From positions 1 through 31,481 of the forward strand of contig CAXTKV010000004.1 in assembly GCA_964244895.1 (NCBI GenBank): a DNA stretch of 31,481 nt, given 5' to 3'. Position numbers and translations under genes: made by a program. The notes beneath the pieces are model-generated. The model saw only the letters and a list, made by a program, of their open reading frames with translations. It ran no database searches and was not told the DNA's origin. Positions within the stretch are counted from its first letter, which is position 1. Each line of letters begins with the position of its first letter. Shown here one piece after another: positions 1,854 through 28,845 of this stretch. The DNA is from an uncultured Deinococcales bacterium. GTDB taxonomy: Bacteria; Deinococcota; Deinococci; Deinococcales; JAAFIG01.

Positions 1854-1899
1854 AACACCGTCCAGAACGCAAATCTAAAATAGCGTCCTGGACGGTGTT
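1854..1899. repeat. Paired palindrome, 46-bp class (21+4+21)
   Basis: AACACCGTCCAGAACGC-N12-GCGTCCTGGACGGTGTT. Confidence 0.9.
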
Positions 1900-2177
1900 C
1901 ACAGCGATTTCAGCCTTTCGTTCCGAATTTCAGATCGCGCTCGAGGCGCTCAGACCCACGATGCCTCGAGCACACATCACATTCCCAGGATGCGAATCCA
2001 AAACGAGCTGTTCGAGCCGCGTCCGCATGCGCCCGGATCGCGTTTCAAGGTGCGGCACACGGCGCGCTGGCGTGAACATCTTTCTCACAAGTAGCCCAAA
2101 AGAGGTCTCATCAGCGGCACGTAGGCTTTGAACTGAAGGTGGCGCTGAAAAGCAAAGCCTCCATACATCCCTCCCCA

Positions 2178-2202
2178 GCCCCCGCAAGGGGGCACCTTTT
2201 TT
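2178..2202 (+). terminator. Rho-independent terminator
   Basis: GCCCCC-GCAA-GGGGGC (GNRA loop) followed by ACC and TTTTTT. Confidence 0.65.
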
Positions 2203-2330
2203 GGCTCGCCTCGGATCGTTCGTTCGGCTCGCACCGCGCACCCGACGAACGTTCAGCACCGTGCGGGCTCGGGCAAAAACCAATCTGATTAGCAAGTGGA
2301 TCAAAGCACAAAGGCTCAGGATTCCGCAAG

Positions 2331-2351
2331 AACTCCGTCCCAGACGGCGTT
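2331..2351. repeat. Single 21-bp palindrome unit
   Basis: AACTCCGTC-CCA-GACGGCGTT, flanked by AAG/CTT. Confidence 0.8.
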
Positions 2352-2474
2352 CTTGATCCGCACCAAAGAAATTTGCGCTATGATGCGGGTCAATACGGCA
2401 ACCGAAACATCCTTTTCGTCTCGAGTCATGCCGTGTGGCGTGCGCCGGTCGGCGACACCACCAGGAGGTTGGTC

Positions 2475-5036
2475 TTGCAATCCATCGGAACCATCACCGT
2501 GCAACCCGTCCTGCCCGCGCAAATCGCACGCCTCAAGGAACTGGCTTACAACCTCTACTGGACGTGGCACCCGGAAATTCAGGCGCTCTTCCAGGAAATC
2601 AACCCGCGCGTCTGGGAAGATTCGGGGCACAACCCGGTTCGGGTGCTTCAAGAATGCGCCCAGCGCGATCTGGAACGCGCGACCGATTCGCAGTTGTTCG
2701 TCAACCAACTGGACGCGGCCCTGATCGCCTTCGACGCGTACATGAACCGCGCCGACACCTGGTGGAAGCGCACCCGGGCCACCAACCCCGCGAAGCTGGC
2801 GTACTTCAGCATGGAGTACGGCTTCCACGAGAGCGTCCAGATTTACTCCGGCGGTCTGGGCATCCTGGCGGGCGACCACCTCAAAAGCGCCAGCGACCTG
2901 GATTTGCCATTGGTCGCGGTCGGCATGCTCTTCCGCGAGGGCTACTTTCACCAGCGCATCGGGCCGGACGGCTGGCAGGGCGAGTATTACGACACCCTGG
3001 AGCCGCAACGCCTGCCCTTGACGCCCGCGTTGGGTGCGGACGGCAAGCCCGTCAAGGTCTGGGTCGAGATTTCGGACCGGAAGGTCTGCGCGCAAGTCTG
3101 GCAGATGAACATCGGGCGGATCAAGATTTACTTGCTGGACGCGAACACGATCGAAAACACACCGTCCGACCGGGCGATCACGGATCGGTTGTACGGCACC
3201 GCCCAGCCGGGCCGCAGCGCGCACGAGTTGCGCGTCGCGCAGGAATTGCTCTTGGGCGTCGGCGGCGTGCGGGCCTTGCGCGCCATGGGCATGAGCCCGA
3301 CCGTCTTTCACATGAACGAGGGTCACGCGTCGTTCCTGGGGCTCGAGCGAGCCCGAGAGTACGTGGCGGAAGGTCTGAAATTCCCCGAAGCGCTCGAGGC
3401 GGTCGCGTCCGGCGCGATCTTCACGACCCACACGCCCGTCCCGGCGGGCAACGATGCCTTCGCCTTCGAACTGGTCGATCAGAAGCTCGGCGGGTACTGG
3501 TTCAACGCGCTCCAAATCTCCAGGGACGAATTCCTGCGCTTGGGCTGGCAGGACTCGCGCGACGGACCGAGCTTCTCGATGACGGTGCTGGCGTTGAAAC
3601 TCTCACGGTTCCACAACGGCGTCAGCGAGCTGCACGGGGAAGTGTCCCGCAAAATGTGGAATTTCGTCTGGCCGGGCGCGGAACTGCCCGAAGTGCCGAT
3701 CACGCACGTCACCAACGGCATTCACACCCGCACGTTTCTCGCACCCGAGATGGCCAAACTCTTCGACGCGCACCTGCCAAAAAACTGGGACGATGAAATC
3801 GAAAACCACGCCGTCTGGCACGGCATCAACGACATCCCAGATCGCGAGCTCTGGGAAGTGCGCAAGTCGCTCAAACGCCACCTGATCGAATTCACCCGCG
3901 CCCGGTTGCGTCGCCAGTACCTGCGCGATGACAGCACGGCGGGTCGCGTCGGAGAACTCGAGACGATCCTCGACGAGAACGCGCTGACCATCGGTTTCGC
4001 GCGGCGCTTCGCGACTTACAAACGCGCCACGCTCTTGTTTCGCGATCTCGAGCGCATTCGCAGGATCGTCAATAACCCCGAACGGCCCGTGCAGTTCATC
4101 TTCGCGGGCAAAGCGCACCCCGCCGACAACCCCGGCAAGGAATTCATCCAGGGCATCGTGCGCATGAGCCAGGACCCGGAGTTGCGCGGCAAGATCGTGT
4201 TCCTGGAGGACTACGACATGAACGTCGCGCGCCACCTGGTGCAGGGCTGCGACATCTGGCTGAACAACCCGCGCCGTCCCTTGGAGGCTTCCGGCACGAG
4301 CGGCGAGAAGGCATCGTTGAACGGCTGCATCAATTTCAGCGTGCTGGACGGCTGGTGGCGCGAGGCTTACGATGGCGCGAACGGCTGGAGCATCGGCGAG
4401 GAACGCGAGTACGCGAACCTGGATTTGCAGGACGCCGCCGACGCCGAAAGTCTGTACCACACCCTCGAATCCGATATCGCCACGCTCTATTACGCCGACA
4501 AGGACGGCGTGCCGGAGGGCTGGATCGCGCGCGTCAAGAACGCGATCCGCACCATCGCGCCCCAGTTCAGCATGCAGCGCCAGGTGCTGGACTACACCCG
4601 CGACCTGTACGTGCCCGCCAGCGCCCACAGCCTGTCCATCAACGCCGACGCCCACGCCAGAGCCAGGAGCCTGTCCGTCTGGAAGGCGCGCATCGCAGCC
4701 GACTGGAGCGGGGTGCGCATCGAGGCGCAGTTCGAGCCAATCAAAGCGATCCACCCCGGCCAGGGCGTGCCCGTCAGCGCCCGCGCTTACCTCGGGTCGC
4801 TCGAGCCCGTAGACGTGCGCATTGAGGTCGTGTTGTCCCATCAGAACGGCGAGATGCGCACCATTTTAGAGCGCACCGCGCTGAACCTGGTCGAACGCGG
4901 TCCCGACGGCTGGGTCACGTATCGCGGCGAAGCCCACCCGAGCGAGTCCGGCAGCTTCGACCTCGGCGTGCGCGCCGTGCCGTACCGCGACGATCTGGCC
5001 CACCCGCTCGAGCTGGGTCTGGCGCGCTGGGCGTAG
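2475..5036 (+). CDS. glgP: Alpha-glucan (glycogen/starch) phosphorylase
   Basis: AYFSMEYG, YSGGLGILAGDHLK, HMNEGH, FTTHTPVPAG, GFARRFATYKRA, FAGKAHP and the PLP-lysine motif EASGTSGEK. AGGAGG at 2463-2468 precedes an in-frame TTG at 2475. Confidence 0.96.
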   Translation: MQSIGTITVQPVLPAQIARLKELAYNLYWTWHPEIQALFQEINPRVWEDSGHNPVRVLQECAQRDLERATDSQLFVNQLDAALIAFDAYMNRADTWWKRTRATNPAKLAYFSMEYGFHESVQIYSGGLGILAGDHLKSASDLDLPLVAVGMLFREGYFHQRIGPDGWQGEYYDTLEPQRLPLTPALGADGKPVKVWVEISDRKVCAQVWQMNIGRIKIYLLDANTIENTPSDRAITDRLYGTAQPGRSAHELRVAQELLLGVGGVRALRAMGMSPTVFHMNEGHASFLGLERAREYVAEGLKFPEALEAVASGAIFTTHTPVPAGNDAFAFELVDQKLGGYWFNALQISRDEFLRLGWQDSRDGPSFSMTVLALKLSRFHNGVSELHGEVSRKMWNFVWPGAELPEVPITHVTNGIHTRTFLAPEMAKLFDAHLPKNWDDEIENHAVWHGINDIPDRELWEVRKSLKRHLIEFTRARLRRQYLRDDSTAGRVGELETILDENALTIGFARRFATYKRATLLFRDLERIRRIVNNPERPVQFIFAGKAHPADNPGKEFIQGIVRMSQDPELRGKIVFLEDYDMNVARHLVQGCDIWLNNPRRPLEASGTSGEKASLNGCINFSVLDGWWREAYDGANGWSIGEEREYANLDLQDAADAESLYHTLESDIATLYYADKDGVPEGWIARVKNAIRTIAPQFSMQRQVLDYTRDLYVPASAHSLSINADAHARARSLSVWKARIAADWSGVRIEAQFEPIKAIHPGQGVPVSARAYLGSLEPVDVRIEVVLSHQNGEMRTILERTALNLVERGPDGWVTYRGEAHPSESGSFDLGVRAVPYRDDLAHPLELGLARWA

Positions 5037-5039
5037 AGG

Positions 5040-5095
5040 AATACCGTCCCAGACGCAAATATCGAGTATCTAAGAACACCGTCCTGGACGGTGTT
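5040..5095. repeat. Paired palindrome, 56-bp class (21+14+21)
   Basis: AATACCGTCCCAGACGCAAAT-N14-AACACCGTCCTGGACGGTGTT. Confidence 0.9.
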
Positions 5096-7241: not shown

Positions 7242-7316
7242 GGGCGGTTAGCTCAGCGGTAGAGCATTCGCTTCACACGCGAGGGGTCGTAGGTTCAAAT
7301 CCTATACCGCCCACCA
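7242..7316 (+). tRNA. tRNA-Val (anticodon CAC)
   Basis: Acceptor stem GGGCGGT/ACCGCCC, D arm GCTC..GAGC, anticodon loop TT-CAC-AC, T loop GGTTCAAATCC, encoded 3' CCA. Confidence 0.97.
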
Positions 7317-8207: not shown

Positions 8208-9677
8208 ATGCCCGAAAGTTTCATCACCATCGCTGGCGTGCGCGTGCGGACGGGGCACTTCATCAATAACCAGCGCGTCTCCAGTGCCCAGACCTTCGCG
8301 GCGCACAGCGCGATTGACGAAAGCCTTCTGGGGAACGTCGCACGCGGAACCCCACTCGAGGTCAACGCCGCCGTCGAGGCCGCCAAGCGCGCCTTTCCGG
8401 CCTGGGCGGCACTCGGTCCGCGCGGGCGCTTCGAGATCCTGGAACGCTTCGCGCACGTGATCGAATCCCACATTGAGGATCTGGCAGCGGTCGAAACAGC
8501 CAACAACGGTTCACTCCTCGAAGCCAGCCGTTTGCGCGTCATGAGGCGCGGCGCGCACAACATCCATTTCTTCGCGGAACTGGCCTTGCAGATGGGCGAG
8601 GCGTGGGACACGGAAGCCGCCAAGAACGCGCGCAACACCGTGCATTACGATCCGGCGGGCGTGACCGCGCTGATCACGCCGTGGAACGCACCGTTCATGC
8701 TGGCCACCTGGAAGATCGGGCCGGCGCTGGCAGCGGGCAACACGGTCGTCTTAAAACCCGCCGAGTGGACGCCGTTCACCGCGTCATTGATGGCGGATTA
8801 CGCCCTGGAAGCCGGACTGCCAGCGGGCGTGTTCAACCTCGTGCAGGGCATCGGCGCGGAGGCGGGAGCGGCGTTGGTGGCGCACCCGGATGTCAAACGC
8901 ATCTCTTTTACGGGCAGCGTCCCGACCGCCAAGAAGATTGCCTCGAGCGCCGCCGTGAACCTCACGCCCGTCAGCTTCGAGCTGGGCGGCAAGAGCCCGT
9001 TCATCGTGTTTGCGGATTCCGACCTCGATCTGGCGATCCGCAACGCAGTCGATCAGTACGACAACTGCGGTCAGGTCTGCCTGTCCGGCACGCGGTTTCT
9101 AGTCGAAGCCGAGATTTACGACGCGTTCCTCGAGCGCTTTGGCGAGGCCGTCAGGAACACCAAGCAGGGCGACCCGCGCGAGCCCGACACGGTCGTCGGG
9201 CCGCTGGTGACGCGCGCGCACCTCGAGCGCGTGCAGGCTTTCGTGGATCGGGCCATTCAATCCGGAGCGAGGCTCGAGTTCGGCGGCAAGGTCTCCCCTG
9301 CGCTGGGTGGGTTGTACTTCGAGCCGACGCTGTTCACGAACGCGGCGCACGACAGCGAAATCTGGCAGCGCGAGGTTTTCGGGCCGGTGCTGGTGCTGGA
9401 TAAATTCTCGGGCGAGGCCGAACTGGTAAAACTCGCCAACGACACGGAATACGGGCTGGCCGCAATGATCTTCACGCGGGATCGAGAAAAAGCCGAGCGA
9501 GTGGCGGATCAACTCGTGGCGGGAACCGTCTGGATCAACTGTTTTTACGTGCGCGACCTGGCCGCGCCGTTCGGCGGCTCGAGACATTCCGGCGTCGGGC
9601 GAGAGGGCGGGCACTGGAGCTTCGACTTTTACTGCGACGTGAAAAACGTGGTTCATCGCAAGGGGACGTTCGCCTGA
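8208..9677 (+). CDS. Aldehyde dehydrogenase, hydroxymuconate-semialdehyde/HpaE-like
   Basis: ITPWNAP, FTGS, FELGGKSP, catalytic GQVCLSGTR, EVFGPV, RDLAAPFGG, SGVGREGG. AGGAGG RBS precedes ATG 8208. Confidence 0.92.
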   Translation: MPESFITIAGVRVRTGHFINNQRVSSAQTFAAHSAIDESLLGNVARGTPLEVNAAVEAAKRAFPAWAALGPRGRFEILERFAHVIESHIEDLAAVETANNGSLLEASRLRVMRRGAHNIHFFAELALQMGEAWDTEAAKNARNTVHYDPAGVTALITPWNAPFMLATWKIGPALAAGNTVVLKPAEWTPFTASLMADYALEAGLPAGVFNLVQGIGAEAGAALVAHPDVKRISFTGSVPTAKKIASSAAVNLTPVSFELGGKSPFIVFADSDLDLAIRNAVDQYDNCGQVCLSGTRFLVEAEIYDAFLERFGEAVRNTKQGDPREPDTVVGPLVTRAHLERVQAFVDRAIQSGARLEFGGKVSPALGGLYFEPTLFTNAAHDSEIWQREVFGPVLVLDKFSGEAELVKLANDTEYGLAAMIFTRDREKAERVADQLVAGTVWINCFYVRDLAAPFGGSRHSGVGREGGHWSFDFYCDVKNVVHRKGTFA

Positions 9678-9711: not shown

Positions 9712-11097
9712 ATGTCGAGCAACACCCAACCCACGCACCTCGGCAAACCGAAACTCACCGTGGTAGACGCGATCGCTCAATCGCTGGCCATCGGGCCGGT
9801 GCTTTCAGCCGGATTGCTGGCCACGCTGGTGGCGGGCGCGGCGGGCAGCGCGGCTCCGCTGGCCACGATCCTGGGCGCGATCGGTTCGATCTGCGTCGGC
9901 TGGGTGATCGTGCTGTTCGCGCGGCAGTACACGGGCGCGGGCGCGATCTACGATTACGTGCGGCGTTCGGCTGGAGCCAGTTTGGGCTTGTTCACCGCCG
10001 GGATTTACTTCATCGGCGCGATGTTCCTGGGCGGCGCGGGCATTTTCTTGGCCATCGGGTTCTTCGCCAACCTGGCCTTCTCGAGTTACTTGGGCATCAA
10101 CCTGCCGTGGTGGGTCTGGTCGCTGGTGGCGATCGGGATCGTGTTCGCCGCCAACCACTTCGGCGTGCAGACCGCGACGCGCACGCAACTGGTGCTGACG
10201 GCGCTGGCGGTGCTGCCGGTGCTGATCATCGCGCTCTCGATCATCTTCTCGGGTGGGGCGCACGGCAACACCTTGGAGGTCTTCAATCCGGGCAACCCGA
10301 ACGCGGGTAGCCTCTTCAAGGGCGTGCTGTTCGCGGTGACGCTCTTCATCGGCTTTGAGGCCAGCGCGTCATTATCCGAAGAGACCGCCAACCCGAAGCG
10401 CACCATTCCCTTCGCGGTGATCGGCACGGTCGTGATCGCCGCCGTGTTCTACGTGATTGTGCTGTACGCGTCCGCCATCGGGTTCGGGGTGGACAAGGTC
10501 GGGGATTGGGTCAAGGATCCGTCTCCGCTGGGCACGCTGGGCGCGAAGTACGTCGGTGGTTGGATCGCGCCGTGGGTCGATGTCGCCATCATCATCGACA
10601 TGCTGGCAGTCGCCAGCGCCTTCACGGCGACCGCCGCGCGCGGCTGGTTCGCGCTGGCGCGTCACAAGCTCTTACCGGAAATCTTCGCTACGACCTCGAG
10701 CCACAACACGCCGTTGGGCGGCAACCTGTTCACGGCGGGACTGGCGGTGCTGTTGGTGGTGATTGCGCTCGCCTCCGGCATGGACGTGATGGCGGTCTTC
10801 GGCGCGAGCGCGCTGGCCGGGACGCTCCTGATTACGGTGATTTACATCGTGCTGGCCGTGTTGGCCTTCCGGTTGGTGCCGCAGAACGCGCCGTGGCAGT
10901 ACGCGGTGCTGCTGGGCGCGATTGTCACGCCCGTGCTGGCGATCTACGGTTCGATCGTGCCGTTCCCGCCGTACCCGGCCAGCCTCGGCGTCTGGGGTGC
11001 GGTCGTGGGCGTGATCGTGGCGGGCATCTGGACGATCACCTCGACGGCGCGCCTGCCCGCGATCACGGCGCTGGACGCGGCAGCCGAAGCGCAGTAA
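9712..11097 (+). CDS. APC-family amino acid/amine permease
   Basis: About 12 hydrophobic segments, GAGAIYDY, FIGFEASASLSEETANPKRTIP. RBS AGGAGGAGG. Confidence 0.92.
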   Translation: MSSNTQPTHLGKPKLTVVDAIAQSLAIGPVLSAGLLATLVAGAAGSAAPLATILGAIGSICVGWVIVLFARQYTGAGAIYDYVRRSAGASLGLFTAGIYFIGAMFLGGAGIFLAIGFFANLAFSSYLGINLPWWVWSLVAIGIVFAANHFGVQTATRTQLVLTALAVLPVLIIALSIIFSGGAHGNTLEVFNPGNPNAGSLFKGVLFAVTLFIGFEASASLSEETANPKRTIPFAVIGTVVIAAVFYVIVLYASAIGFGVDKVGDWVKDPSPLGTLGAKYVGGWIAPWVDVAIIIDMLAVASAFTATAARGWFALARHKLLPEIFATTSSHNTPLGGNLFTAGLAVLLVVIALASGMDVMAVFGASALAGTLLITVIYIVLAVLAFRLVPQNAPWQYAVLLGAIVTPVLAIYGSIVPFPPYPASLGVWGAVVGVIVAGIWTITSTARLPAITALDAAAEAQ

Positions 11098-11103
11098 GCA
11101 AGG

Positions 11104-11159
11104 GACACCGTCCTAGACAGCGTTTCTCGAGAATCAGAATTCGCGTGCTGGACGGTGTT
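11104..11159. repeat. Paired palindrome, 56-bp class
   Basis: GACACCGTCCTAGACAGCGTT-N14-ATTCGCGTGCTGGACGGTGTT. Confidence 0.88.
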
Positions 11160-11218
11160 CTTCAAAAGCTCGAGCCGACCTCGAAAACCCTCAAGCCCAA
11201 TATAAGGAAGGGGAATCC

Positions 11219-12499: not shown

Positions 12500-12580
12500 C
12501 CAAGCCATCCGGAGGGGCGAACCCGGTGTTCGCCCTCTCATGGCAACGATCTTCATCCATCAAGACGCGAGCATTTTAAG

Positions 12581-12626
12581 AACACCGTCCAGCACACATA
12601 TTTGAATTCGTGTCCCGGACGGTGTT
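12581..12626. repeat. Paired palindrome, 46-bp class
   Basis: AACACCGTCCAGCACAC-N12-GTGTCCCGGACGGTGTT. Confidence 0.9.
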
Positions 12627-16494: not shown

Positions 16495-16550
16495 GACACC
16501 GTCTGGGACGCACTCTTTTCACCTCGAGAAAAGCCGTGCTGGACGGTGTT
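16495..16550. repeat. Paired palindrome, 56-bp class
   Basis: GACACCGTCTGGGACGCACTC-N14-AAAGCCGTGCTGGACGGTGTT. Confidence 0.88.
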
Positions 16551-19292: not shown

Positions 19293-19309
19293 TCGCACCC
19301 AGAGCCAAA

Positions 19310-19355
19310 TACACCGTCCAGCACGCAAGATTGAACACGCGTGCCGGACGGTGTT
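19310..19355. repeat. Paired palindrome, 46-bp class
   Basis: TACACCGTCCAGCACGC-N12-GCGTGCCGGACGGTGTT. Confidence 0.9.
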
Positions 19356-19653
19356 GTTATCGCTCGAGCTACCGGATTCCGTCAGGTTTCTCGAGCCGCC
19401 AGGTTTCTCGAGTCGCGCCCTCGCGGGCACGAATTTCCGGCGGGCGTCCGCTCGCGTTTTGCACATCGGCGCCCTTTCTCCAGAGATTCTCGACCGCGTT
19501 TCTGGAAGGTTCAATGCCATCTCGAGCGTTCACTCGAGTGGCCGAACGAGGTTCTCGAGAACCGTCCCGCGAATGTGAGCAAAACGCGATTTATTGCGTC
19601 AATAACGATGTTCATGAGGCGTCGCACTTTTTGAAAGTGCAGTAGGGTGAGCA

Positions 19654-20625
19654 ATGCCACTCCAAGCGCCATCTCAGTTGCAACGGTCCGTGCCAGCCGA
19701 AGCCCAAAATGAGATTTCGCTCCGAGAGATCTACGTGATCTTGCACCACTGGCGCGCGTTCATCGCGGCGTGCATCCTGATCCCCATCGTCGTCGCGCTG
19801 GTGATCGGAGCGCTGATGCCCCGCGTGTACACCTCCAAGGTCACCCTGTCGCTGGGATTGAACGCCCAGTCCGTCGGCGGTTCAGGCATCACGGCGCAAC
19901 TCCTGACCAACTTGCCCAACCTGGCCGGACTCGCGCAGGGCTTTACCGATCTGATGCGCACCAAAGTGATCGCCGATCAACTCGGTGAAGCCGACCCGGA
20001 AAGCAAGTACAAGGCGCAGTTCCAGGAAAAACAGGGCCTGTTCGTGCTGACCGCTCGCGGCGGTACGGCCCGAGAAGCGCTGCAAGGCGCGCAGCGCTTC
20101 TCGACGGTCGCCAAGCAGTATTTCAAGGGTCGGTTGGTGCTGGCGGTCGTCTCGAATCTCGAGTCGTTGCTGTCGCGCTCCAGGCTGGACATCGCGAACA
20201 TGCAAGAAAACCTGCGGCGTTTGCAGGTCGAACTCAAAAATACGCCCACTGAAACCCGCACCATCGAAGCGCTGCTGCCCAGCGCAGGCGCGAACGGTCG
20301 CGCCAACGGTGCCTTCAGCGCCAGGGGAACCAGCCCCGCCTTCGCCACGTTGAGCGTTCAGGAAGCCACGCTGCGCACGGGGCTGGCGCAATCGAGGGCC
20401 CTGATCGAGGCGCTGGAGGGCGTGCAGAAGCAACCCGGCGAACTGGACAAGTTGATCGGTCAGGCGTTGCAGTTGCAGGAACTCGTACCCGCAGCGGAAC
20501 CGTTGCGCCCCGACCAGCCGCGCCCGTTGCTGTACGCCGCCATCGCGGGCGTGCTGGGCTTGTTGATCGGGTTGATCGCGCCGTTCCTGATCGAGGCGAT
20601 ACGCGAACCTCAGACCACGTGGTGA
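19654..20625 (+). CDS. Wzz/polysaccharide co-polymerase-like membrane protein
   Basis: N-terminal EISLREI followed by a TM segment and PRVYTS, central coiled coil, C-terminal Pro-rich PLRPDQPRP followed by a Gly-rich TM segment. Confidence 0.8.
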   Translation: MPLQAPSQLQRSVPAEAQNEISLREIYVILHHWRAFIAACILIPIVVALVIGALMPRVYTSKVTLSLGLNAQSVGGSGITAQLLTNLPNLAGLAQGFTDLMRTKVIADQLGEADPESKYKAQFQEKQGLFVLTARGGTAREALQGAQRFSTVAKQYFKGRLVLAVVSNLESLLSRSRLDIANMQENLRRLQVELKNTPTETRTIEALLPSAGANGRANGAFSARGTSPAFATLSVQEATLRTGLAQSRALIEALEGVQKQPGELDKLIGQALQLQELVPAAEPLRPDQPRPLLYAAIAGVLGLLIGLIAPFLIEAIREPQTTW

Positions 20626-20726
20626 ACGCGAGAACATCAATCTTTGAGCGCGCCCGCCGCTCGATATCGGGCGATCTCGTCAGCCACGGACCTCGCTCGA
20701 GATACGGTATTCGGTTTCACACGGGA

Positions 20727-20772
20727 AACACCGTCCAGCACGCATGTTGATAAACGCGTGCTGGACGGTGTT
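20727..20772. repeat. Paired palindrome, 46-bp class (perfect 17-bp arms)
   Basis: AACACCGTCCAGCACGC-N12-GCGTGCTGGACGGTGTT. Confidence 0.92.
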
Positions 20773-20790
20773 CTTGAAGCTCGAGCCACG

Positions 20791-20825
20791 AAAAAGCCCG
20801 TCTCGAGAGGCTCGAGACGGGCTTT
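20791..20825 (-). terminator. Terminator between the convergent wzz-like and OFOR beta genes
   Basis: Perfect 15-bp stem AAAGCCCGTCTCGAG-AGG-CTCGAGACGGGCTTT. The A5 run gives a U-tract on the minus strand. Confidence 0.75.
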
Positions 20826-20840
20826 GAGCAGATCGTTTTC

Positions 20841-21875
20841 TTACGCGAATTCCGCCATGACCTTATCGAGCACGTCCTGGCTGGGGCGCAGCAGGCGCTC
20901 GGGCAGCAGGGCAATCGGCGTGTCGTGGACGCCTTCGGTGTCCAGGATCGTCTCGCGGGATTCGTTGATGTACACCACGCCCGTGGTCAACTCGCCGGAA
21001 CGCCGCGAATCCTCGAGCATCTTCAGGGCGCTCAGCTTGTTGGTCGGGTCGTGATCCTTGGAGAGCTTGCGGAGCTGCACCACGTCGCCGTCGTGAAGCT
21101 TGACGCTGACCACCTCGCCGGGTTCGTAATCCACGGCAATTTCGGTGTATTCGGGTACGAAGGTGATGTCGTGCAACTGCACCTCGTGCTCCTTGCCGTA
21201 AGAGTAGGACTTGGTGCTCTCATCGGCGTTGTTGAAGGTCACGCACGGGCTGATGATGTCCAGCACGGCCAGCCCGTTGAAGTTCATGGCGGCCTTCAAA
21301 AGCTCCGTGACCTGCTTGGCGTCGCCCGCAAAGCTGCGCGCCACGAAGCCCGCACCGGCCACGATCGCCTCGGCGCACAGGTCCAAGGGCGGCAGTTCGT
21401 TGGTTCCGGCGTACTTGAGCGTCTGGCCTTCGTCGGCGGTGGCGCTGAACTGGCCTTTGGTCAATCCGTAAACGCCGTTGTTCTCGATGATGTAGACCAT
21501 CGGTACGTTGCGGCGCACCAGGTGCTTGAACTGGCCCAGCCCGATCGAGCCCGTGTCGCCGTCGCCGGAGACGCCGATGGCGTGCTGGTTGCGGTTGGCC
21601 AGCATCGCGCCGGTGGCCACGGACGGCATGCGCCCGTGAACGGTGTTGATGCCGTGCGCGCCGTTCAGGAAGTACGCCGGGGATTTCGATGAGCACCCGA
21701 TGCCGGAGAGCTTGATGACCTCGTGCGGTCGGACGCCCAACTGGTAGGCGGCGTCGATGATCCGGCTCGAGATCGAATCGTGCCCGCAACCGGGGCAGAG
21801 TGTGCTGGGCAAGCCCTTGTAGTCGCTCTTCTCGAGACCGATGCTGTTCACTTTCGGTTCAACGGCGGCAGTCAC
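20841..21875 (-). CDS. korB: 2-oxoacid:ferredoxin oxidoreductase beta subunit
   Basis: LCPGCGH, SGIGCSSK, HGRMPSVATG, TPP motif GDGD...ENNGVYGLTKGQ, SPCVTFN. Substrate specificity not determinable. Confidence 0.92.
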   Translation of the reverse strand: MTAAVEPKVNSIGLEKSDYKGLPSTLCPGCGHDSISSRIIDAAYQLGVRPHEVIKLSGIGCSSKSPAYFLNGAHGINTVHGRMPSVATGAMLANRNQHAIGVSGDGDTGSIGLGQFKHLVRRNVPMVYIIENNGVYGLTKGQFSATADEGQTLKYAGTNELPPLDLCAEAIVAGAGFVARSFAGDAKQVTELLKAAMNFNGLAVLDIISPCVTFNNADESTKSYSYGKEHEVQLHDITFVPEYTEIAVDYEPGEVVSVKLHDGDVVQLRKLSKDHDPTNKLSALKMLEDSRRSGELTTGVVYINESRETILDTEGVHDTPIALLPERLLRPSQDVLDKVMAEFA

Positions 21876-21876
21876 T

Positions 21877-23697
21877 TTATTTTCCTCCCTTGACTCGCGC
21901 GGCCACGAAGGTGCCCGAGAGCGGCAGGCCGTCGCAGTGCGCGATCGAGTGGATCTTCACGGCGAATTCCGGATATTCGGAGCGCAGAATCGTGGCCAGT
22001 TGACCGTGCTGGTTGAGTTCGATCACCACGACGCGCTCGTGGCCTTCCAGGAAGGCTTTGACTTCGGCGGTCAACGGCAACGCGCGAAGGCGCAGGTAAT
22101 CCGTCTCGAGCCCTTCAGCTTTGAGCATCGCGCGACCCTCGACGATGGCCGGGTCGGTGCTGCCGAAGGCGATGATCCCGAGCGCGTGACCGCTCTCGTC
22201 CACGACGGGCTTGGGCACGATGGTGCGCGCGAAGTTGTGCTTGCGATCCAGTCGCTCGAGGTTCTTCATCCAGTCGTCCGGGCGCTCCGAGTACGTGGCG
22301 GTGTCCGTGTGGCCCGTGCCGCGCGTGAAGTAGGCCGCGCCCATCGCGTCCGTGCCGGGCAGCGTGCGCGGGCCGACGCCCGTGCCGTCCTCGTCGCGGT
22401 AGCGCGCGAACTGCCCACCGAGCGCTTTGACGTCATCGGCGCTCAGGATCTTGCCGCGCTGGATAGGCTGGTTGGGGTACTCGAACTTTTCGGACATCCA
22501 GAGGTTCATGCCCAAGTCCAGATCCGAAAGCACGAACACCGGCGTCTGAAGCGTATCGGCCAGATCCAATGAGCGCCAGCCGAACTCGAAGCACTCCTTG
22601 ACGCTGCCGGGCAGCAACACGATGTGCTTTGTGTCGCCGTGCGAGAGGTAGTACGTGCTCAACAGGTCGCCCTGCGAGACTCGAGTCGGCAAGCCCGTGC
22701 TCGGGCCCATGCGCTGCACGTCCCAGATCACGGCGGGAATTTCAGCGAAGTACCCCAATCCCGCGAACTCGCCCATCAGGGAAATACCGGGGCCTGAGGT
22801 GCTGGTCATGGCTCGAGCGCCCGCCCAGCCCGCGCCCAGCAGCATCCCGATGGCGGCCAGTTCGTCCTCGGCCTGCACGATCGCGAAAGTCGCCTTGCCC
22901 GTTTCGGGGTCGGTGCGCAATTTCGGCAGGTACTCCGTGACCGCGTCCGCCAGGCTGGTGGCCGGGGTGATCGGGTACCAGGCCATCACGCCCACGCCGC
23001 CCCAGATTGCGCCCAGACCGCCCGCCGTGTTGCCATCCACCAATATCATGCCTTCGGTGGCGTTCATGCGCTCCACGCGGTACGGGTCAGATTTAACGAT
23101 GTTCTGCTCGCACCACTGAAAGGCCGCCTTGGCGATGTTCAAGTTGGAATCCACGACCTTCTGCTTGCCACCGAAGGTCTTCATCAGGTACGCGTTGATC
23201 GCGTCCATCTCGAGCCCGATGACCTGCGCCAGCGCCCCGACGTAGACCATGTTGATCATGCGGTCGCGGAACTTCACGTCCACGTTCTGCTCTTTCATGA
23301 TCGCGTTGGCGGGTAGCGCGTAATACGCTACGTCCTCGCGGGTTTTCTCGAATTTCAGGTGATCCGGGTAAAAAATCGCGCCGCCCGTCGGCAGTTCCTT
23401 CAGGTCAGCATCGATGGTTTTGGCGTTGAACGCGACCAGCACTTCCGATTTATCGCGGCGCGCCACGTAGCCGTCCTTGCTGGCGCGGATCGAATACCAG
23501 GTCGGCAAGCCCTTGATGTTCGACGGGAACAAGTTTTTGGCGTTGACCGGGATGCCCATGTGAAACAGCGCATCCACGATGGTCGCGTTCGCGGTCTGAG
23601 AGCCCGAACCGTTGACGGTCGCGACGTTGATCGTGAAATCGTTGATCACCTGCGGGCGGGGGGTTTTCGCGTCTGGGCGTTCCTGAAGTTGGGTCAT
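21877..23697 (-). CDS. korA: 2-oxoacid:ferredoxin oxidoreductase alpha subunit (gamma-alpha fusion)
   Basis: NGSGSQT, YPITPAT, QAEDELAA, TSGPGISLM, QRMGPSTGLPT. RBS GAGAGGAAGG precedes ATG 23697. Confidence 0.92.
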   Translation of the reverse strand: MTQLQERPDAKTPRPQVINDFTINVATVNGSGSQTANATIVDALFHMGIPVNAKNLFPSNIKGLPTWYSIRASKDGYVARRDKSEVLVAFNAKTIDADLKELPTGGAIFYPDHLKFEKTREDVAYYALPANAIMKEQNVDVKFRDRMINMVYVGALAQVIGLEMDAINAYLMKTFGGKQKVVDSNLNIAKAAFQWCEQNIVKSDPYRVERMNATEGMILVDGNTAGGLGAIWGGVGVMAWYPITPATSLADAVTEYLPKLRTDPETGKATFAIVQAEDELAAIGMLLGAGWAGARAMTSTSGPGISLMGEFAGLGYFAEIPAVIWDVQRMGPSTGLPTRVSQGDLLSTYYLSHGDTKHIVLLPGSVKECFEFGWRSLDLADTLQTPVFVLSDLDLGMNLWMSEKFEYPNQPIQRGKILSADDVKALGGQFARYRDEDGTGVGPRTLPGTDAMGAAYFTRGTGHTDTATYSERPDDWMKNLERLDRKHNFARTIVPKPVVDESGHALGIIAFGSTDPAIVEGRAMLKAEGLETDYLRLRALPLTAEVKAFLEGHERVVVIELNQHGQLATILRSEYPEFAVKIHSIAHCDGLPLSGTFVAARVKGGK

Positions 23698-23980
23698 GAG
23701 CCTTCCTCTCGAGGCGCGCGGGATGAAATTCACCCGTGGAGGCCGTTGTGGGTTGCACCGGTCAATCCCGGTGCACTCTACATTGGCCTGACGGTCGCAA
23801 AACCGTCGTGGCCAAAAACGTCAAGCATTGTACCAACTCGGGGTCATACAAACACGGGTTCGCGCACGCTTTAGAATCCGTCCCTTCGTCGGGAACAATG
23901 TCCCGTTCCAAAGGGCTCCGCGACCCACGAAACTCGTCCTGAGCGCTCGAGACGCAATGCTCGAGTCCGTGGATATCAGG

Positions 23981-24027
23981 AACACCGTCTGGGACGGTGT
24001 TTCGTGAATAGCGTGCTGGACGGTGTT
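23981..24027. repeat. Paired palindrome, 47 bp (21+5+21)
   Basis: AACACCGTCTGGGACGGTGTT-TCGTG-AATAGCGTGCTGGACGGTGTT. Confidence 0.9.
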
Positions 24028-24111
24028 CCCGCTCGAGACACCCGCCATGACCGATTTACAGCAATCCCTCTCGACCCAAGCCGAACCCGCTCCCCATCGG
24101 GTCAGAACGGG

Positions 24112-24141
24112 TTGACACCCCATTCAACCTGGGCATAACAT
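24112..24141 (+). promoter_or_regulatory. Sigma70-type promoter for the mgtE leader
   Basis: TTGACA (24112-24117), 18-nt spacer, TAACAT (24136-24141). Confidence 0.6.
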
Positions 24142-24196
24142 TCTTGAGGTTCGCTCGAGATGGTTTTCAATCTCGAGAACCAGATAGGGAGGTGGT

Positions 24197-24283
24197 ATGG
24201 AACCCATTCCCAGTTCGGGGCCAGTGCCTTTATCGCGCACTTCGGGGGTTCGTGCCACGGCTCAAATCGAACACGGCTCCTGA
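24197..24283 (+). CDS. Putative 28-aa Pro-rich leader peptide MEPIPSSGPVPLSRTSGVRATAQIEHGS
   Basis: Strong SD GGGAGGT just upstream of ATG 24197, open to TGA 24281-24283. Absent from the supplied ORF track because it is short. Confidence 0.55.
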   Translation: MEPIPSSGPVPLSRTSGVRATAQIEHGS

Positions 24284-24388
24284 CAAACCCTGAATACGCT
24301 CCAGCACGGCAACGCAGCGATAAAGCCCGTGCTTCATTTTCCTGTGCGTGAAAGCGTTCAGGTCGCGCCCTTCGTGGGCTGTCAGGAG
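24277..24388 (+). promoter_or_regulatory. Structured 5' leader sequestering the mgtE ribosome-binding site
   Basis: CTCCTGACA (24277-24285) pairs with TGTCAGGAG (24380-24388, includes the SD). Nested helices: CCTGAA/TTCAGG, TACGC/GCGTG, AGCACGG/CCGTGCT, GCCC/GGGC. Confidence 0.65.
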
Positions 24389-24395
24389 GTGAGTC

Positions 24396-25775
24396 ATGAT
24401 CCAGTTCGACACGATTCTCGAGTCCATCGAACTCCTCGAGATTTTGCGCGAGGCCGAACTCGACCCGAAGCGCCGGGACGAGTTCAAACGTTTGTTGCGA
24501 ACCCAGCCGGAACCCGTGGTGGATGCGGCCTTCGAGGAAGCATCCAGGGATGAACGCCTGGAATTCTTGCGGTTGATGCCGGTGGAGCGGGCCGCGACGA
24601 CCTTCACGGACTTGCCGCTTGTGGCCCAGGCGGAATACCTGCCGGATCTGGCAGCTGACCGTTTGCGGGTGATGGGCGCGTTCATCGGCCCGGACGAGAT
24701 CGCGGACTTGCTGGGCGAACTGGGCGATGACCCACGGCGGGATTATTTGCTCAATTCCTTGCCGCCGACGCTCGCCAAGAGCGCGCGGGAACTCGAGCAT
24801 TACGACGAGGACGAGGCGGGCGGCATCATGACGCCCGAATACGTCGCACTGCGCGAGGGCACGACGGTCGCGCAGGCCATCGCGTTCTTGCGCCAGGCCG
24901 CCGATCACGCGGAAACCGTCTCGAACCTGTACCTGGTGAACGCCACGGGTCAACTTTCGGGCGTGATCTCGTTGCAGAGCCTGGTGACGGGCGCGCCGAA
25001 CGCGAAGGTGGACGACCTGGCGCGGCGCGAGATCATCTTTGCGCGCACCGACACCGACCAGGAAGAGGTCGCGCACCTGATGCGCGATTACGACCTGGCG
25101 GTCTTGCCGGTCGTGGATGCAGACGGCGTATTGAAGGGTATCGTCACGATCGACGACGTGCTGGACGTGGTGCAGGAGGAAGCCACGGAGGACATCTACC
25201 GCGGCGCAGCCATGGAAGGCTCCGAGATCGAGTACCGCGACGCCAGCCCGTTGCTGCTGTGGCGCAAGCGCATCGGCTGGTTGCTGATCCTGTTCGTGAC
25301 GGAAAGCCTGACGGCCAACGTGATTTCGGCTTACGACAAATTGATCGCGGCTGCGCCATTGTTGGCCGTGTACTTGCCGACGCTGATCGGCACGGGCGGC
25401 AACACGGGTTCTCAATCGGCGACGCTGGTGATTCGCGCGATCGCGCTCGGTCAGATTCGCGGGCGGGACGCGCTGCGGGTGCTGGTCAAGGAGTTCGGTG
25501 CGGGGTTGCTGATCGGCTTGACCATCGGCGTGGTGGCGTTCTTTCGGATCGTGATTTTTCGCAGCCAGCAGGGTGTGGGTCTGGCCGTGACCGCCGCCGT
25601 CTCGATGTTTTTCATCGCCATTTTTGCCAACATCACGGGGGCGCTCTTACCGTTGTTGTTCAAGAAGCTCCGGATCGATCCGGCCCTGACCTCGAGCCCG
25701 TTCCTGGCGACGGTCATGGATGCGACCGGCTTGCTGATTTATTTCAACATCGCCAAGTTCGTGCTGAAGCTCTGA
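24396..25775 (+). CDS. mgtE: Magnesium transporter MgtE
   Basis: Acidic N domain, AGGIMTPEY, two CBS domains (GIVTIDDVLD), GTGGNTGSQ, DPALTSSPFLATVMDATG. Confidence 0.96.
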   Translation: MIQFDTILESIELLEILREAELDPKRRDEFKRLLRTQPEPVVDAAFEEASRDERLEFLRLMPVERAATTFTDLPLVAQAEYLPDLAADRLRVMGAFIGPDEIADLLGELGDDPRRDYLLNSLPPTLAKSARELEHYDEDEAGGIMTPEYVALREGTTVAQAIAFLRQAADHAETVSNLYLVNATGQLSGVISLQSLVTGAPNAKVDDLARREIIFARTDTDQEEVAHLMRDYDLAVLPVVDADGVLKGIVTIDDVLDVVQEEATEDIYRGAAMEGSEIEYRDASPLLLWRKRIGWLLILFVTESLTANVISAYDKLIAAAPLLAVYLPTLIGTGGNTGSQSATLVIRAIALGQIRGRDALRVLVKEFGAGLLIGLTIGVVAFFRIVIFRSQQGVGLAVTAAVSMFFIAIFANITGALLPLLFKKLRIDPALTSSPFLATVMDATGLLIYFNIAKFVLKL

Positions 25776-25795
25776 AATTCAGGTCTCCGTTTCGG

Positions 25796-25851
25796 GACAC
25801 CGTTCAGGACGCAAAATCTCGATGCCAGAGAACACCGTGTTGGACGGTGTT
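25796..25851. repeat. Paired palindrome, 56-bp class
   Basis: GACACCGTTCAGGACGCAAAA-N14-AACACCGTGTTGGACGGTGTT. Confidence 0.88.
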
Positions 25852-25867
25852 CTCGAGGTTGCTGCCA

Positions 25868-26590
25868 TCACTTCCCGCCGAGCTGGCTGGCGAACAGGTT
25901 GATCGATAACCCGATGATGATCGTGTTGTAAAAGAACGAGATCAGCGCGTGGCGCAACACGGCGCGCCGGATGCCGCGATCGGAGATGTTCGTGTCCGCC
26001 ACCTGAAAGGTCATGCCGATGATGAACGAGAAATACGCGAAATCGAGGTCGTCCGGGTCGCCTTCGTCGTTGAAATCGATGCCGCCGACATCGCCGTCGT
26101 TGCGGTAGTACAGGTGCGCGTAATGAAGCGTGTAGGCCGTCTGGGTCATGAACCAGGCGACGACGACGGCGGTCACGCTGAGCAACTCCACCAGGCCGGT
26201 CGAGGTGGGGTCGATGGCTTTCACGTCGCGCAGCACCAGCACCGCCACCGCGATCGAGGCGATGCTGGAAAGCACCACCACCAGGAACACGCCCGGCCCA
26301 CCGGGGTCATCTTCGGCGGCGCGCATCCTGGTGTGTTCGGCATCGCTGTGGGTGATCAACCACCAGGCCAGCACCAGGAACACCAGCCCGCCCGCGTCCC
26401 AGGCGGCCAGAACCCGGATCAGCGGGTGAGCGTTCGAGACTCCGAGCGCGACCGCGAGGCTGACGGTGAGCGCGATCAGCAAGCGTCCGGCTGCGCCGAG
26501 CGGATCACCGGCTTCTCGCATCGTGGCGCGGATGGCGCGTCGATCGCGTTTTTGGTCGTGTCGCTTGGCGGAGCGTTCGGGGGCTTTCAC
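25868..26590 (-). CDS. DUF1345 family membrane protein
   Basis: AAEDDPG, YTLHYAHLYY, PDDLDFAYFSFIIGMTFQVADT, LRHALISFFYNT. Confidence 0.88.
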   Translation of the reverse strand: MKAPERSAKRHDQKRDRRAIRATMREAGDPLGAAGRLLIALTVSLAVALGVSNAHPLIRVLAAWDAGGLVFLVLAWWLITHSDAEHTRMRAAEDDPGGPGVFLVVVLSSIASIAVAVLVLRDVKAIDPTSTGLVELLSVTAVVVAWFMTQTAYTLHYAHLYYRNDGDVGGIDFNDEGDPDDLDFAYFSFIIGMTFQVADTNISDRGIRRAVLRHALISFFYNTIIIGLSINLFASQLGGK

Positions 26591-26662
26591 GGCAAGAGTG
26601 TAATCGCTCGGGCGTGGATGGAAGCTGAAGCGGTGGGTCGCTCAGGGCTTTGAATATCAAAA

Positions 26663-26713
26663 AAGACCGTTCCAGACGGTGTTCTCGAGGTTTTTACCGT
26701 CTGGGACGGTCTT
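26663..26713. repeat. Paired palindrome, 51 bp (21+9+21)
   Basis: AAGACCGTTCCAGACGGTGTT-CTCGAGGTT-TTTACCGTCTGGGACGGTCTT. Confidence 0.85.
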
Positions 26714-26752
26714 CTCCAGAATTCGCACCTCGAGAATGCACGCCTCGAGCAC

Positions 26753-28651
26753 TCAATTCTCGGCCAGCACGATGATCCGGTCGGCGGGCTTGAAGCTGAC
26801 GCTCTGGGATTTGACCGGGTTGACGCGCACGCCGTAGGCGGCGCTGGCATCGTGGGCCTGATGCTGCAAGCGGTAACCGATGGCCACCTCGCCGCGCAGA
26901 CGGGCGGCTTCCAGAACCGTGTAGAAGTTGACGCTCTGTCCAGGTTTGACGTACTGATCGGCGGGCTTGAGGTACAGCTCAGAGCCGTCCGCGCTGAACA
27001 GGTAGCGGAACACGTCCGCCAGGCCCTTGTTCTCGCTGACCTGAGAGAGCATCAGGCTGATCAGTTTGTCGCTGACGATGAAATCGTCGGCCTTGGTGAC
27101 TTCGGCCAGTTCGCGGTTGCGGTTGTCCAGCATCTCGGAGACGACGGACAGATCTCGCCCGGAACGGTCCGCGATCTCGCGCAGGTGCAACAGCGTCACC
27201 AGCGTGCGCGCGTCGGCCTGCTGGGGCTCGAGGCTATCGCTGTAGGCCAGCACGATCACGTGGTTGAAGCGCGTCGGATCGAGCGCGTCCAGGGTGCGGC
27301 GGTCGGTGGTGTCGCCGCGCTGAAAGGTCACGGTCTGTTTCCGGTTCTGTTCGCCCTCGGTGATTCCCACGATTTCGCCCAGGTCGGCCACGACCGTCAG
27401 GCTGGAACCCGCCGCGACGTACTGCTCGAGTTCCTGCACGATCATCAGTCCGCGCCGGTTCCAGCCCAGGATCAGCGTGCGCTCCGGCGCGGCTTTCGGG
27501 ATGGGCGCCGTGACGATGGCGCTGGCGTCCAGGCTGGGCATCAGACCGGAGGCTTTGATCGTGTCGTCGTCCTCTGAGATCACGATCAGTTGGTCATCGG
27601 CGGCAATCACCGTCTCGCTGGGCGGGTTGAGCATGGCCGCGCCGTCGCGGAAGAGACCCATCACGCTCGAGGTCTCGAAATGAAAAACGGCATCCTGAAA
27701 GGTCTTGCCGACCAGCGCGGATTCACGGTGAAAATAGATCTCGTCGCCGCCGAAGTCCAGCAATTCCGTGTACACGACGCTCAACCCGGACTGACGGCAG
27801 GTCTGCACGGTGATCCGGGAGATCAGGTCGCCCGCCAGCACGAAGTGCGCTTCAGATTTGCCGACCAGCCTGGCGGCCTCGAGGTTCCGCTCGTCGCGCA
27901 CCTCGGCCACGATGTGGTACGGCTCCGCGCGGCGGCGCGGGTTGTTGGTGATCGCCAGCACCGTCTTGATCACGTGCGAATCCGGGTCATCCACCTCCGG
28001 AGCCAGCACGATGATCGATTTCGAGGCGTGCGGGTTCGCGATCTCGAGGTCAGTCAGGTCGATCGGGCTGCCCGAACGGCAGACGATTCGCGTGCGACCC
28101 GTCGCCCCGATGCGTCCTCGGATCTCGTCTTCCATCTCGACCTTGTCGCGGTCGGCCAGCACCACGATGGCGGCCCGGCGTTGGTTGGCGTTGGCCAGCA
28201 CCAGCTCGGAAAGGATAGAGAAAATCTGCGGCGACCAGCCCAGGATCAGCGTGTGGTTCCGTTCGATCACGAAGCTGCGGCCCTTGCGCATGTCGTCCAG
28301 CTTCGATTCCAGGCCGCTCGAGATGATGCCGATCAGACTGCTGACCACGAAAATACCGCCGACGGTCACGGCCAGCATGGCGAACAAAAACGGCCAGCCG
28401 CCCGTGTCGCCGCCCATCGTGCCGGAATCCAGGGTTCGCATCAAGCCCATCCACAGCAGTTGCGGGAAGTTCGGTCTGGCACCGCTGTCGTCCACGGCGG
28501 GTGCCAACCCCAGCACGGTCACGATCAGCGCGATGGCGACGATGATCAGGGCTGAAAGCAAAAACAACCAGGCGATCATGGCCACCGGGCCGCGCGCCAT
28601 GATGTTGTCGAAGGTGTAGCGCCAGCGATCCTGCCAGGTGATTCGTCGCAT
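26753..28651 (-). CDS. CASTOR/POLLUX-related putative ion channel (TM pore plus two RCK domains)
   Basis: RYTFDNIMARG, pore segment MRTLDSGTMGGD, KGRSFVIERNHTLILGW, CRQSGLSVVYTELLDFGGDEIYF, ADDFIVS, GSELYLKP. RBS AGGAG precedes ATG 28651. Confidence 0.88.
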   Translation of the reverse strand: MRRITWQDRWRYTFDNIMARGPVAMIAWLFLLSALIIVAIALIVTVLGLAPAVDDSGARPNFPQLLWMGLMRTLDSGTMGGDTGGWPFLFAMLAVTVGGIFVVSSLIGIISSGLESKLDDMRKGRSFVIERNHTLILGWSPQIFSILSELVLANANQRRAAIVVLADRDKVEMEDEIRGRIGATGRTRIVCRSGSPIDLTDLEIANPHASKSIIVLAPEVDDPDSHVIKTVLAITNNPRRRAEPYHIVAEVRDERNLEAARLVGKSEAHFVLAGDLISRITVQTCRQSGLSVVYTELLDFGGDEIYFHRESALVGKTFQDAVFHFETSSVMGLFRDGAAMLNPPSETVIAADDQLIVISEDDDTIKASGLMPSLDASAIVTAPIPKAAPERTLILGWNRRGLMIVQELEQYVAAGSSLTVVADLGEIVGITEGEQNRKQTVTFQRGDTTDRRTLDALDPTRFNHVIVLAYSDSLEPQQADARTLVTLLHLREIADRSGRDLSVVSEMLDNRNRELAEVTKADDFIVSDKLISLMLSQVSENKGLADVFRYLFSADGSELYLKPADQYVKPGQSVNFYTVLEAARLRGEVAIGYRLQHQAHDASAAYGVRVNPVKSQSVSFKPADRIIVLAEN

Positions 28652-28740
28652 CGGGGCTCCTCGTGAACTGTGATTTCCGCGATGATCATACGGGCGCTGG
28701 CTCAAGGTCAGCTTCAAACACCGCGCCGGAATCCCCGGTC

Positions 28741-28785
28741 AGTGGTCAGCCTGAAGCTCGAGGCTCGAGCTTCGGGTTGACCGCT
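28741..28785 (+). other. Long stem-loop in the divergent intergenic region
   Basis: AGTGGTCAGCCTGAAGCTCGAG-G-CTCGAGCTTCGGGTTGACCGCT, 22-nt arms. All three deviations are G-U pairs on the + strand. Confidence 0.6.
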
Positions 28786-28789
28786 CGAG

Positions 28790-28845
28790 AAGACCGTGCG
28801 GGACAGCTTTTCTTGGCTTCAGTAAACACCGTCTGAGACGGTCTA
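28790..28845. repeat. Paired palindrome, 56-bp class (a further degenerate unit starts near 28868)
   Basis: AAGACCGTGCGGGACAGCTTT-N14-AACACCGTCTGAGACGGTCTA. Confidence 0.8.

Follow-up and report, generated by a model that had tools for sequence, protein, structure and literature searches.

The first 31,481 bp of contig C4 from the genome assembly of an uncultured Deinococcales bacterium (the window; the assembly amounts to 5.12 Mb in 328 contigs and is 91% complete) hold genes of ordinary metabolism and transport, a DUF3208 gene, a tRNA gene (7242-7313) and a repeated element made of two related 21-bp units. A weight matrix trained on the main pair classes finds 27 units of at least 14 bits in the window, arranged as 11 pairs and five singles (Table 1), against a mean of 0.12 and a maximum of one in 50 dinucleotide shuffles; genome-wide it finds 4,614 units (1,773 pairs, 1,004 singles and 21 larger clusters), against 10 in the reversed genome. 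An Rfam search of the window returned the tRNA only, with no RNA-family match to the repeats. Gene positions are those of our own codon-model gene caller (4,478 genes genome-wide); the main ribosomal-protein operon and EF-Tu gave no motif hits in the assembly, which thus has gaps.

What do the units share? The outer half of each is conserved (AACACCGTC at window 1854-1862), and CGT at positions 6-8 and ACG at 14-16 hardly ever change. Two kinds of inner half occur, one that truly mirrors the outer and a variant that ends in an A/T tract; the latter predominates in the class of pairs that spans 46 bp. A preliminary description of this DNA spoke of paired palindromes; pairs of related units they are, but most paired units are not true palindromes because the inner half has a different consensus. 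One pair carries about 48 bits of information. Spacers diverge while their lengths are largely kept, as that description says: the inner regions of pairs are nearly all distinct and share only 46-51% pairwise identity.

Distances of up to 45 bp between neighbouring units (n = 1,816) are concentrated at 25 (807), 26 (122), 35 (537) and 36 (192), 1,658 in total; minor classes lie at 30/31 (42) and 41/42 (27), and spacings of 27-29, 32-33 and 38-40 together account for only 19 cases. The same ladder emerges from an untrained check, in which end-to-end spans between copies of a 9-nt half-site (at most one mismatch) were counted genome-wide: 21 (520), 46 (668), 47 (108), 56 (306) and 57 (138), with each other span from 22 to 150 at 13 or fewer. 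A looser pair-correlation analysis agrees with the trained-matrix result. The nine pairs listed in the preliminary description are all correct in coordinates and span, and the single 47-bp and 51-bp pairs that it mentioned have been located (Table 1). Its rule of a gap of exactly 4 or 14 bp captures the two dominant classes, but the rule is really 25/26 and 35/36 with minor classes at 30/31 and 41/42; the genome-wide histogram of unit distances that it proposed as a check is neither flat nor unimodal, with strong peaks at 25 and 35. Spacing also goes with orientation. Head-out pairs have spacings of 25/26 and 35/36, with 30/31 in 0 of 1,121, whereas tail-out pairs have 30/31 in 16 of 39, 33-35 in 14 of 39 and 25/26 in none; a binomial test on the tail-out spacings is descriptive only, the classes having been chosen after seeing the data. 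A model in which two units share one CTCGAG was rejected: it predicts a spacing of 27, which is rare (6 cases). The hexamer CTCGAG has 21,883 copies in this genome and 5-10 per kb in the relatives (L034-L062), an excess of the HIP1 kind. Strong avoidance is seen for many other palindromic hexamers in this genome and its relatives.

The order extends beyond the units. A/T dinucleotides peak at ~7, 20, 32, 43 and 54 bp from the element edge, on both sides and in non-homologous flanks, with T runs preceding A runs. The period of this pattern, 11.7 bp (bootstrap 11.4-11.8), stays locked to the edge for ~55 bp. Its relative amplitude (0.149 over 3,184 flanks) is 2-10 times that at 15 sets of control anchors (0.015-0.066), which include long A/T tracts and decoys matching the A/T pattern of the element. 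Convergent-only flanks (772), divergent-only flanks (386) and adjoining coding DNA (895 flanks) all share one phase, and around in-gene sites the amplitude is 0.152 (244 flanks). Do the elements themselves generate the 11-bp period of the genome? This possibility is out, since the period persists more than 300 bp away and in the relatives; because the general period is independent of the elements, the result lies in the locking of the phase and in how large the effect is. An 11-bp A/T period is common in bacteria and has no agreed cause (PMC4132750, PMC7537859).

How do elements arise? Coding DNA (3.26 Mb of confident coding sequence) holds 239 of the 4,614 units, so that ~95% avoid genes, and 20 of 1,635 main-class pairs. 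Nevertheless, 38 coding-DNA units reach at least 24 bits, against 1-4 in four null sets, three of which preserve the protein sequence. The four top in-gene singles (27.7-31.8 bits) all align without a gap at the site to orthologues that score at most 2.7 bits there; similarly, a 57-bp pair in a gene that we take to be PheT-like is gapless against 15 orthologues scoring at most 2.2 bits, and residue changes create the motif. In three other in-gene pairs the gain is 2, 1-3 and 6-8 residues, which falls short of 46-55 bp, so these are not full insertions. Because in-gene sites align gaplessly to low-scoring orthologues or bring too few added residues, sites are often written in place, by selection or conversion. 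Nearly all copies are distinct (797 of 800 and 524 of 524), and nearest-neighbour distances are so close to a positional Markov null (5.46 vs 5.80; 10.64 vs 11.25) that there are no clonal subfamilies. Target-site duplications of 2-9 nt are absent from 1,629 pairs, which, like the distinctness of the copies, does not fit a miniature inverted-repeat transposable element or a derivative of an insertion sequence (IS); a lack of target duplication is compatible with HUH chemistry. A search for empty alleles among paralogous flanks of the same genome gave 97 matches, with no clean empty allele among the matches listed.

Elements of this family also serve as hosts. A second, structured element of 37-41 bp has its insertion point in the outer half of a unit, after position 8, with a shared junction of at most 1-2 nt; it forms tandem copies and nests into itself, and none lies in the window. 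A profile search places it at 78 loci (for example C3 ~3060-3100, C91 ~9540-9660 and C174 ~2210-2330), of which 42 have a unit-like left junction by pattern, with many others also in units; where hosts can be resolved, their spacings of 24-26 (24) or 35/36 (12) are kept. An enzyme for this second element was not found; a few of its copies sit in what we presume to be IS5-like transposase genes.

Most copies, including most in the window, are predicted to fold into strong hairpins. This is uninformative, since any inverted pair folds; the test is selection for pairing. In the 56-bp class, mirrored covariation is ~0 at the variable positions 10, 11 and 13 and 0.26 at position 14, and in the 47-, 56- and 57-bp classes chimeras of unrelated halves fold the same as natives or better. 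Mismatches on the transcribed strand show no asymmetry (G.U 633 vs A.C 646). The centre of the 46-bp class even shuns mirror symmetry, its commonest inner triplet facing its own mirror 0 times against 14.3 expected, as would follow from a disadvantage of long stems prone to cruciform formation or from descent of the class from a polar template. There is little or no selection for base-pairing. A terminator-like site overlaps one of nine pairs (window 10000-29500, in a scan limited to loops of at most 8 nt); this low overlap and the lack of strand or orientation asymmetry speak against an intrinsic terminator, which would be a strand-specific stem with a U run, and an RNA role for the elements is unlikely.

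Elements occupy 452 of the 542 convergent gaps of at least 60 bp, 1,391 of the 2,031 tandem gaps of that size and 338 of the 605 divergent ones. Their orientation shows no bias relative to transcription, and their presence does not rise with a codon-bias proxy of expression (0.38-0.42, with 0.32 in the top bin; the reference set has 6 genes). There are 27 element-free stretches of at least 9 kb, up to one entire 55-kb contig, and these are likely foreign DNA because five of them carry a tyrosine integrase. Contigs C5 (55 kb) and C15 (41 kb), which have no strong unit over long stretches and normal GC, are likely plasmid or island DNA. At C36 ~30800-32050 lies a CRISPR array with a 37-bp repeat, in which one spacer start is unit-like by chance.

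The strict palindrome pattern is absent from 18 genomes of the family and occurs, as one match, in one of 22 other genomes of the order. In wider collections the paired pattern gave three off-class-span matches (actinomycetes), no viral contig and one metagenome contig. On the latter, two 25-spaced pairs follow genes that share 90% and 79% identity with genes of this genome, whose counterpart pairs have spacings of 25 and 26 and different spacers; run X1 holds a sibling at ~91% identity that carries the same motif family. Four relatives, compared over 84-91 kb each, have no comparable dense repeat (top 12-mer at most 7 copies, vs 23 in 80 kb here). Because it is near-absent in relatives and present in the siblings represented by the metagenome contig and X1, the motif family is, on the evidence of these sequences, confined to this lineage within the searched set and vertically inherited. 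No description of a 21-bp motif family of this kind was found in the literature, where a search for the motif brought up three unrelated eukaryotic papers; supplementary lists of REPs (repetitive extragenic palindromes), which were not covered, could contain a related family.

Table 1. Paired and single units in the window, with one example of a full footprint
Feature	Position	Remarks
Pair, 46-bp class (spacing 25)	1854..1899	Divergent gap; units score 30 and 33 bits
Pair, 56-bp class (spacing 35)	5040..5095	3 nt after phosphorylase stop, convergent gap; right unit fully palindromic
Pair, 56-bp class	11104..11159	6 nt after permease stop codon
Pair, 46-bp class	12581..12626	Between glutamine-synthetase-like and P450 genes
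Pair, 56-bp class	16495..16550	Tandem gap
Pair, 46-bp class	19310..19355	17 nt after stop codon
Pair, 46-bp class	20727..20772	Convergent gap; near consensus
Pair, 47-bp class (spacing 26)	23981..24027	Divergent gap; one unit fully palindromic, typical of the 47-bp class
Pair, 56-bp class	25796..25851	Fills short convergent gap
Pair, 51-bp minor class (spacing 30)	26663..26713	Matrix scan
Pair, 56-bp class	28790..28845	Divergent gap; more decayed
Single unit, 17 bits	52..72	Non-coding
Single weak unit, 15 bits	612..632	Within a predicted gene; possibly a chance match
Single near-palindromic unit, 21 bits	2331..2351	Matrix scan
Single unit, 18 bits	5182..5202	Matrix scan
Single unit, 19 bits	7121..7141	Upstream of oligopeptidase gene
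Example of full predicted footprint	20667..20832	Pair plus ~55-60 bp of phased A/T flank per side; the phasing is statistical over all pairs, not demonstrable at one locus

The phased flanks, the gains in genes without insertion and the flat or negative hairpin tests favour recognition of these elements as double-stranded DNA. The best reading, to which we assign a probability of about 0.6, is that these head-to-head pairs are docking sites for a putative lineage-specific protein that would bind duplex DNA in a fixed rotational setting and bend or wrap it. Each unit would be read by a dimer through the invariant CGT-N5-ACG core; in the two main classes, 2.4-2.5 and 3.3-3.4 turns would separate the dimers, so that the second class repeats the setting of the first with one turn added; and the phased flanks predict that ~160-170 bp of double helix is bent or wrapped. 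Selection would maintain length, keep the flanks bendable and build new sites by substitution, and a low rate of whole-element copying or conversion may help to seed them. The job is likely structural, such as shaping the DNA locally or dealing with supercoils at the ends of genes, rather than gene-specific regulation. Two dimers on double-stranded DNA in fixed phase were already proposed in the preliminary description, and this proposal is the best supported (through the flanks, the in-place gains and the lack of pairing selection), but the ladder of spacings stops at 35/36, with 41/42 minor. Its argument that an RNA hairpin needs no quantised loop lengths is not sufficient by itself: a hairpin element can be just as regularly spaced, as REPIN doublets show with their conserved spacings of 71 and 110 bp (PMC3116915).

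Which protein might dock at these sites? One hint comes from the motif of the response to radiation and desiccation (RDRM), the operator of DdrO, a 17-bp dyad with invariant terminal TT/AA found in repair-gene promoters (PMC1978522, PMC8533742). The unit has the same inner G/C geometry, its inner 13 bp outscoring 99.5% of random sequence with a matrix built from the RDRM sites of this genome, and this geometry hints at a helix-turn-helix dimer of the XRE type as a candidate reader. The units are not RDRMs themselves: the terminal TT/AA is missing, and none of 3,898 units reaches the lowest RDRM score (8.1 vs 13.2). Canonical DdrO is encoded at C77:2266-2655 (E 2.6e-66 to PDB 6jq1); together with the DUF3208 gene of the window it assigns this genome to the Deinococcota. 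With 18 ordinary RDRM sites genome-wide the radiation-response regulon is apparently intact; RDRM-like sites precede genes that we take to be gyrase, excision-repair and recombination-like genes. A search for XRE proteins gave 20 matches and no clear binder candidate. GyrA is single-copy (C149:1443-3890), lacks the acidic C-terminal tail seen in three relatives, has two short insertions in its C-terminal domain and is otherwise ordinary. Three HU-like genes (C10:5198-5500, C103:16593-16886, C117:13596-13862) compare with one to three in relatives, and the codon-bias score of the copy on C10 is among the highest. DUF559 has one match outside the gene calls, and GIY-YIG one in a UvrC-like gene. 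Inspection by eye of 72 small proteins with high codon bias, scored against the same 6-gene reference set, yielded no candidate binder.

Several points tell against paired docking sites on duplex DNA. No binder was found: gyrase, the three HU-like proteins and DdrO all look ordinary. The third peak at 45-46 bp that the preliminary description thought possible is absent genome-wide, with one case among the 1,816 close distances. The in-gene alignments cover 8 of 25 in-gene pairs and the four top singles (12 tests; 239 in-gene units), picked from the top of the score list; among them, two further pairs lie in variable loops, where alignments are uninformative, and one protein has no orthologue in five genomes. 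Mirrored covariation in the 46-bp class is modest (kappa up to 0.24), and natives of this class fold slightly better than chimeras (-26.2 vs -24.9). A general period of 11.2-11.5 bp runs through this genome and its relatives, and because it exists anyway, phased flanks could record the target preference of an inserting enzyme. The elements lie at a median of 21-24 nt after a stop codon, a placement shared by REPs, which also lie just after stop codons (PMC3733652). Finally, some copying of whole elements is real. Identical pairs in unrelated flanks number 3 against 0.1 expected, and pairs within two mismatches 52 against 9.6 (plain half-swap) or 30 (stratified, maximum 41). One in-gene pair, in a gene that its motif leads us to take for a P-type ATPase, is a clean 17-residue (51-nt) in-frame insertion when set against 9 homologues, which shows that arrival as a block is possible; run X1 aligns there gaplessly, with 84 differences in 901 nt, and, sharing the insertion, gave no insertion boundaries.

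Could the elements be selfish instead? As a REPIN/BIME-like family, they would go back to two ancestral hairpins (or a few), 46 and 56 bp long, that a single-strand transposase missing from the assembly copied around; spacing would be inherited, and the flanks would mark easy insertion. REPs, BIMEs and REPINs resemble the elements in occurring as hundreds to thousands of extragenic inverted doublets that are lineage-specific and lie downstream of genes (PMC3733652, PMC3116915, PMC6006769), with conserved spacing, no target duplication, occasional in-frame insertion and other mobile DNA targeting them. Fixed-spacing inverted doublets define REPINs, and the density after stops, the preference for convergent gaps, the strong predicted hairpins, the ATPase insertion, the near-identical copies, the polar 46-bp centre and the missing target duplication all fit. 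Furthermore, an enzyme could be missed because the assembly is 91% complete and has gaps. On the other side, within this assembly a PF01797 search, a six-frame motif look and the 34 most densely flanked genes revealed no Y1 transposase, no IS110 or reverse transcriptase was found, and no multi-copy transposase is among the 45 largest paralogue groups shown (DDE families were not searched singly, and repeats collapse in such assemblies). The tetranucleotide GTAG/GTGG that by definition stands 0-2 nt 5' of the hairpin foot of a REP (PMC6006769) is found, as GT[AG]G, at only 35 of 3,268 element ends. The gapless gains in conserved genes cannot be simple insertions, pairing selection is lacking in the 56- and 57-bp classes, clonal subfamilies are absent, and the tail-out pairs have spacings of their own; sites arising in place, two spacings one turn apart, minor classes that depend on orientation, and phased flanks are further departures from REPs and REPINs. 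CGTC-tagged REPs were rejected as a match: they have an unpaired terminal CGTC beside a stem of 8-9 bp, a 4-5-nt loop and a CCA tail (PMC3733652), whereas here CGTC lies inside the dyad (positions 6-9), the loop is 3 nt and there is no CCA tail. The alternative offered in the preliminary description, two ancestral subfamilies copied as units, draws support from the near-identical copies and the polar centre but not from the near-null nearest-neighbour distances. Overall, a REPIN-like origin is unlikely.

Molecular drive is an improbable explanation. An uptake, recombination or repair machine would prefer DNA with the motif or convert partial matches, and sites would accumulate in place, not each of them useful. 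The in-place gains with amino-acid changes, the scarcity of elements in foreign-looking regions and the genome-wide excess of CTCGAG already present are in line with such a process. In addition, four exported helix-hairpin-helix paralogues, which we recognize as presumably ComEA-like, are among the small genes with the highest codon bias (C206:645-962, C240:6088-6543, C225:5440-5760, C179:9785-10273). However, most units avoid genes, whereas uptake sequences are common in genes; the information in a pair is far above that of known uptake signals; and we know of no uptake specificity in this phylum. RNA hairpins that terminate transcription in both directions or stabilise 3' ends, which the placement after stops, the convergent-gap enrichment and the stable predicted stems might suggest, are very improbable given the lack of G.U/A.C strand asymmetry, orientation bias and rise with expression, the occupied divergent gaps, the single terminator-like overlap and the symmetric phased flanks, which would be senseless for RNA.

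Protein-docking repeats at gene ends have precedents. In E. coli, RIB elements (IHF-binding BIME-1) and the gyrase sites of BIME-2 are 3'-end repeats that bind an architectural protein or a topoisomerase beside or within REPs. The elements, as putative protein sites on duplex DNA at 3' ends of transcription units, are similar, but here the units themselves are operator-like and present in thousands of copies, and no IHF-type box was recognised. As dense docking repeats at gene ends they would work like BIMEs and RIBs, but they stand outside the REP families by tag and by hairpin constraint. Palindromic sites on duplex DNA that are scattered over a chromosome, also within genes, and maintained by selection or drive include matS (bound by MatP), SBS (SlmA), parS (ParB) and DNA uptake sequences; sites of the matS, SBS and parS type are single and number in the tens, and uptake words are short. 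To our knowledge, obligate phased pairs with wrapped flanks at such density have no counterpart. Work on RIB and on BIME-2 gyrase sites appears by title among the references of PMC12306157. The closest described pattern to the phased flanks, a symmetric core with periodic flanks, is the DNA gyrase motif, which has a 36-bp core and ~47-bp periodic arms ascribed to wrapping and is enriched downstream of genes (PMC6379681). That motif is degenerate, extends over 130 bp with a ~10-bp period and follows transcription (PMC6379681), whereas here the core holds ~48 bits, the predicted footprint is ~160-170 bp, the period is 11.7 and there is no link to the expression proxy.

What would paired docking sites on duplex DNA mean for this lineage? 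The organisation of bacterial chromosomes is mostly credited to proteins of little sequence specificity (PMC4132750, PMC7537859). The boldest reading, which we put forward tentatively and rate below even odds, is that one Deinococcales genus has evolved a particle of nucleosome size that is positioned by sequence: a new protein (or else a loader, for gyrase or some other machine) would sit as two dimers on ~2,000 paired sites, one per gene gap, wrap ~165 bp with a handed twist and mark the resident chromosome as self, under selection powerful enough for codons and residues in essential genes to have been rewritten. If the REPIN-like explanation were true instead, the family would still lack the tag, and its enzyme would choose bent targets. 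A protein-docking repeat can be told from an ordinary REP by its flank phasing and by its gains in place. In this genome, the A/T period is locked to a defined, high-information site in most gene gaps, and the elements may thus serve as a ready probe for the protein, the phase, the length of the wrap and its handedness.

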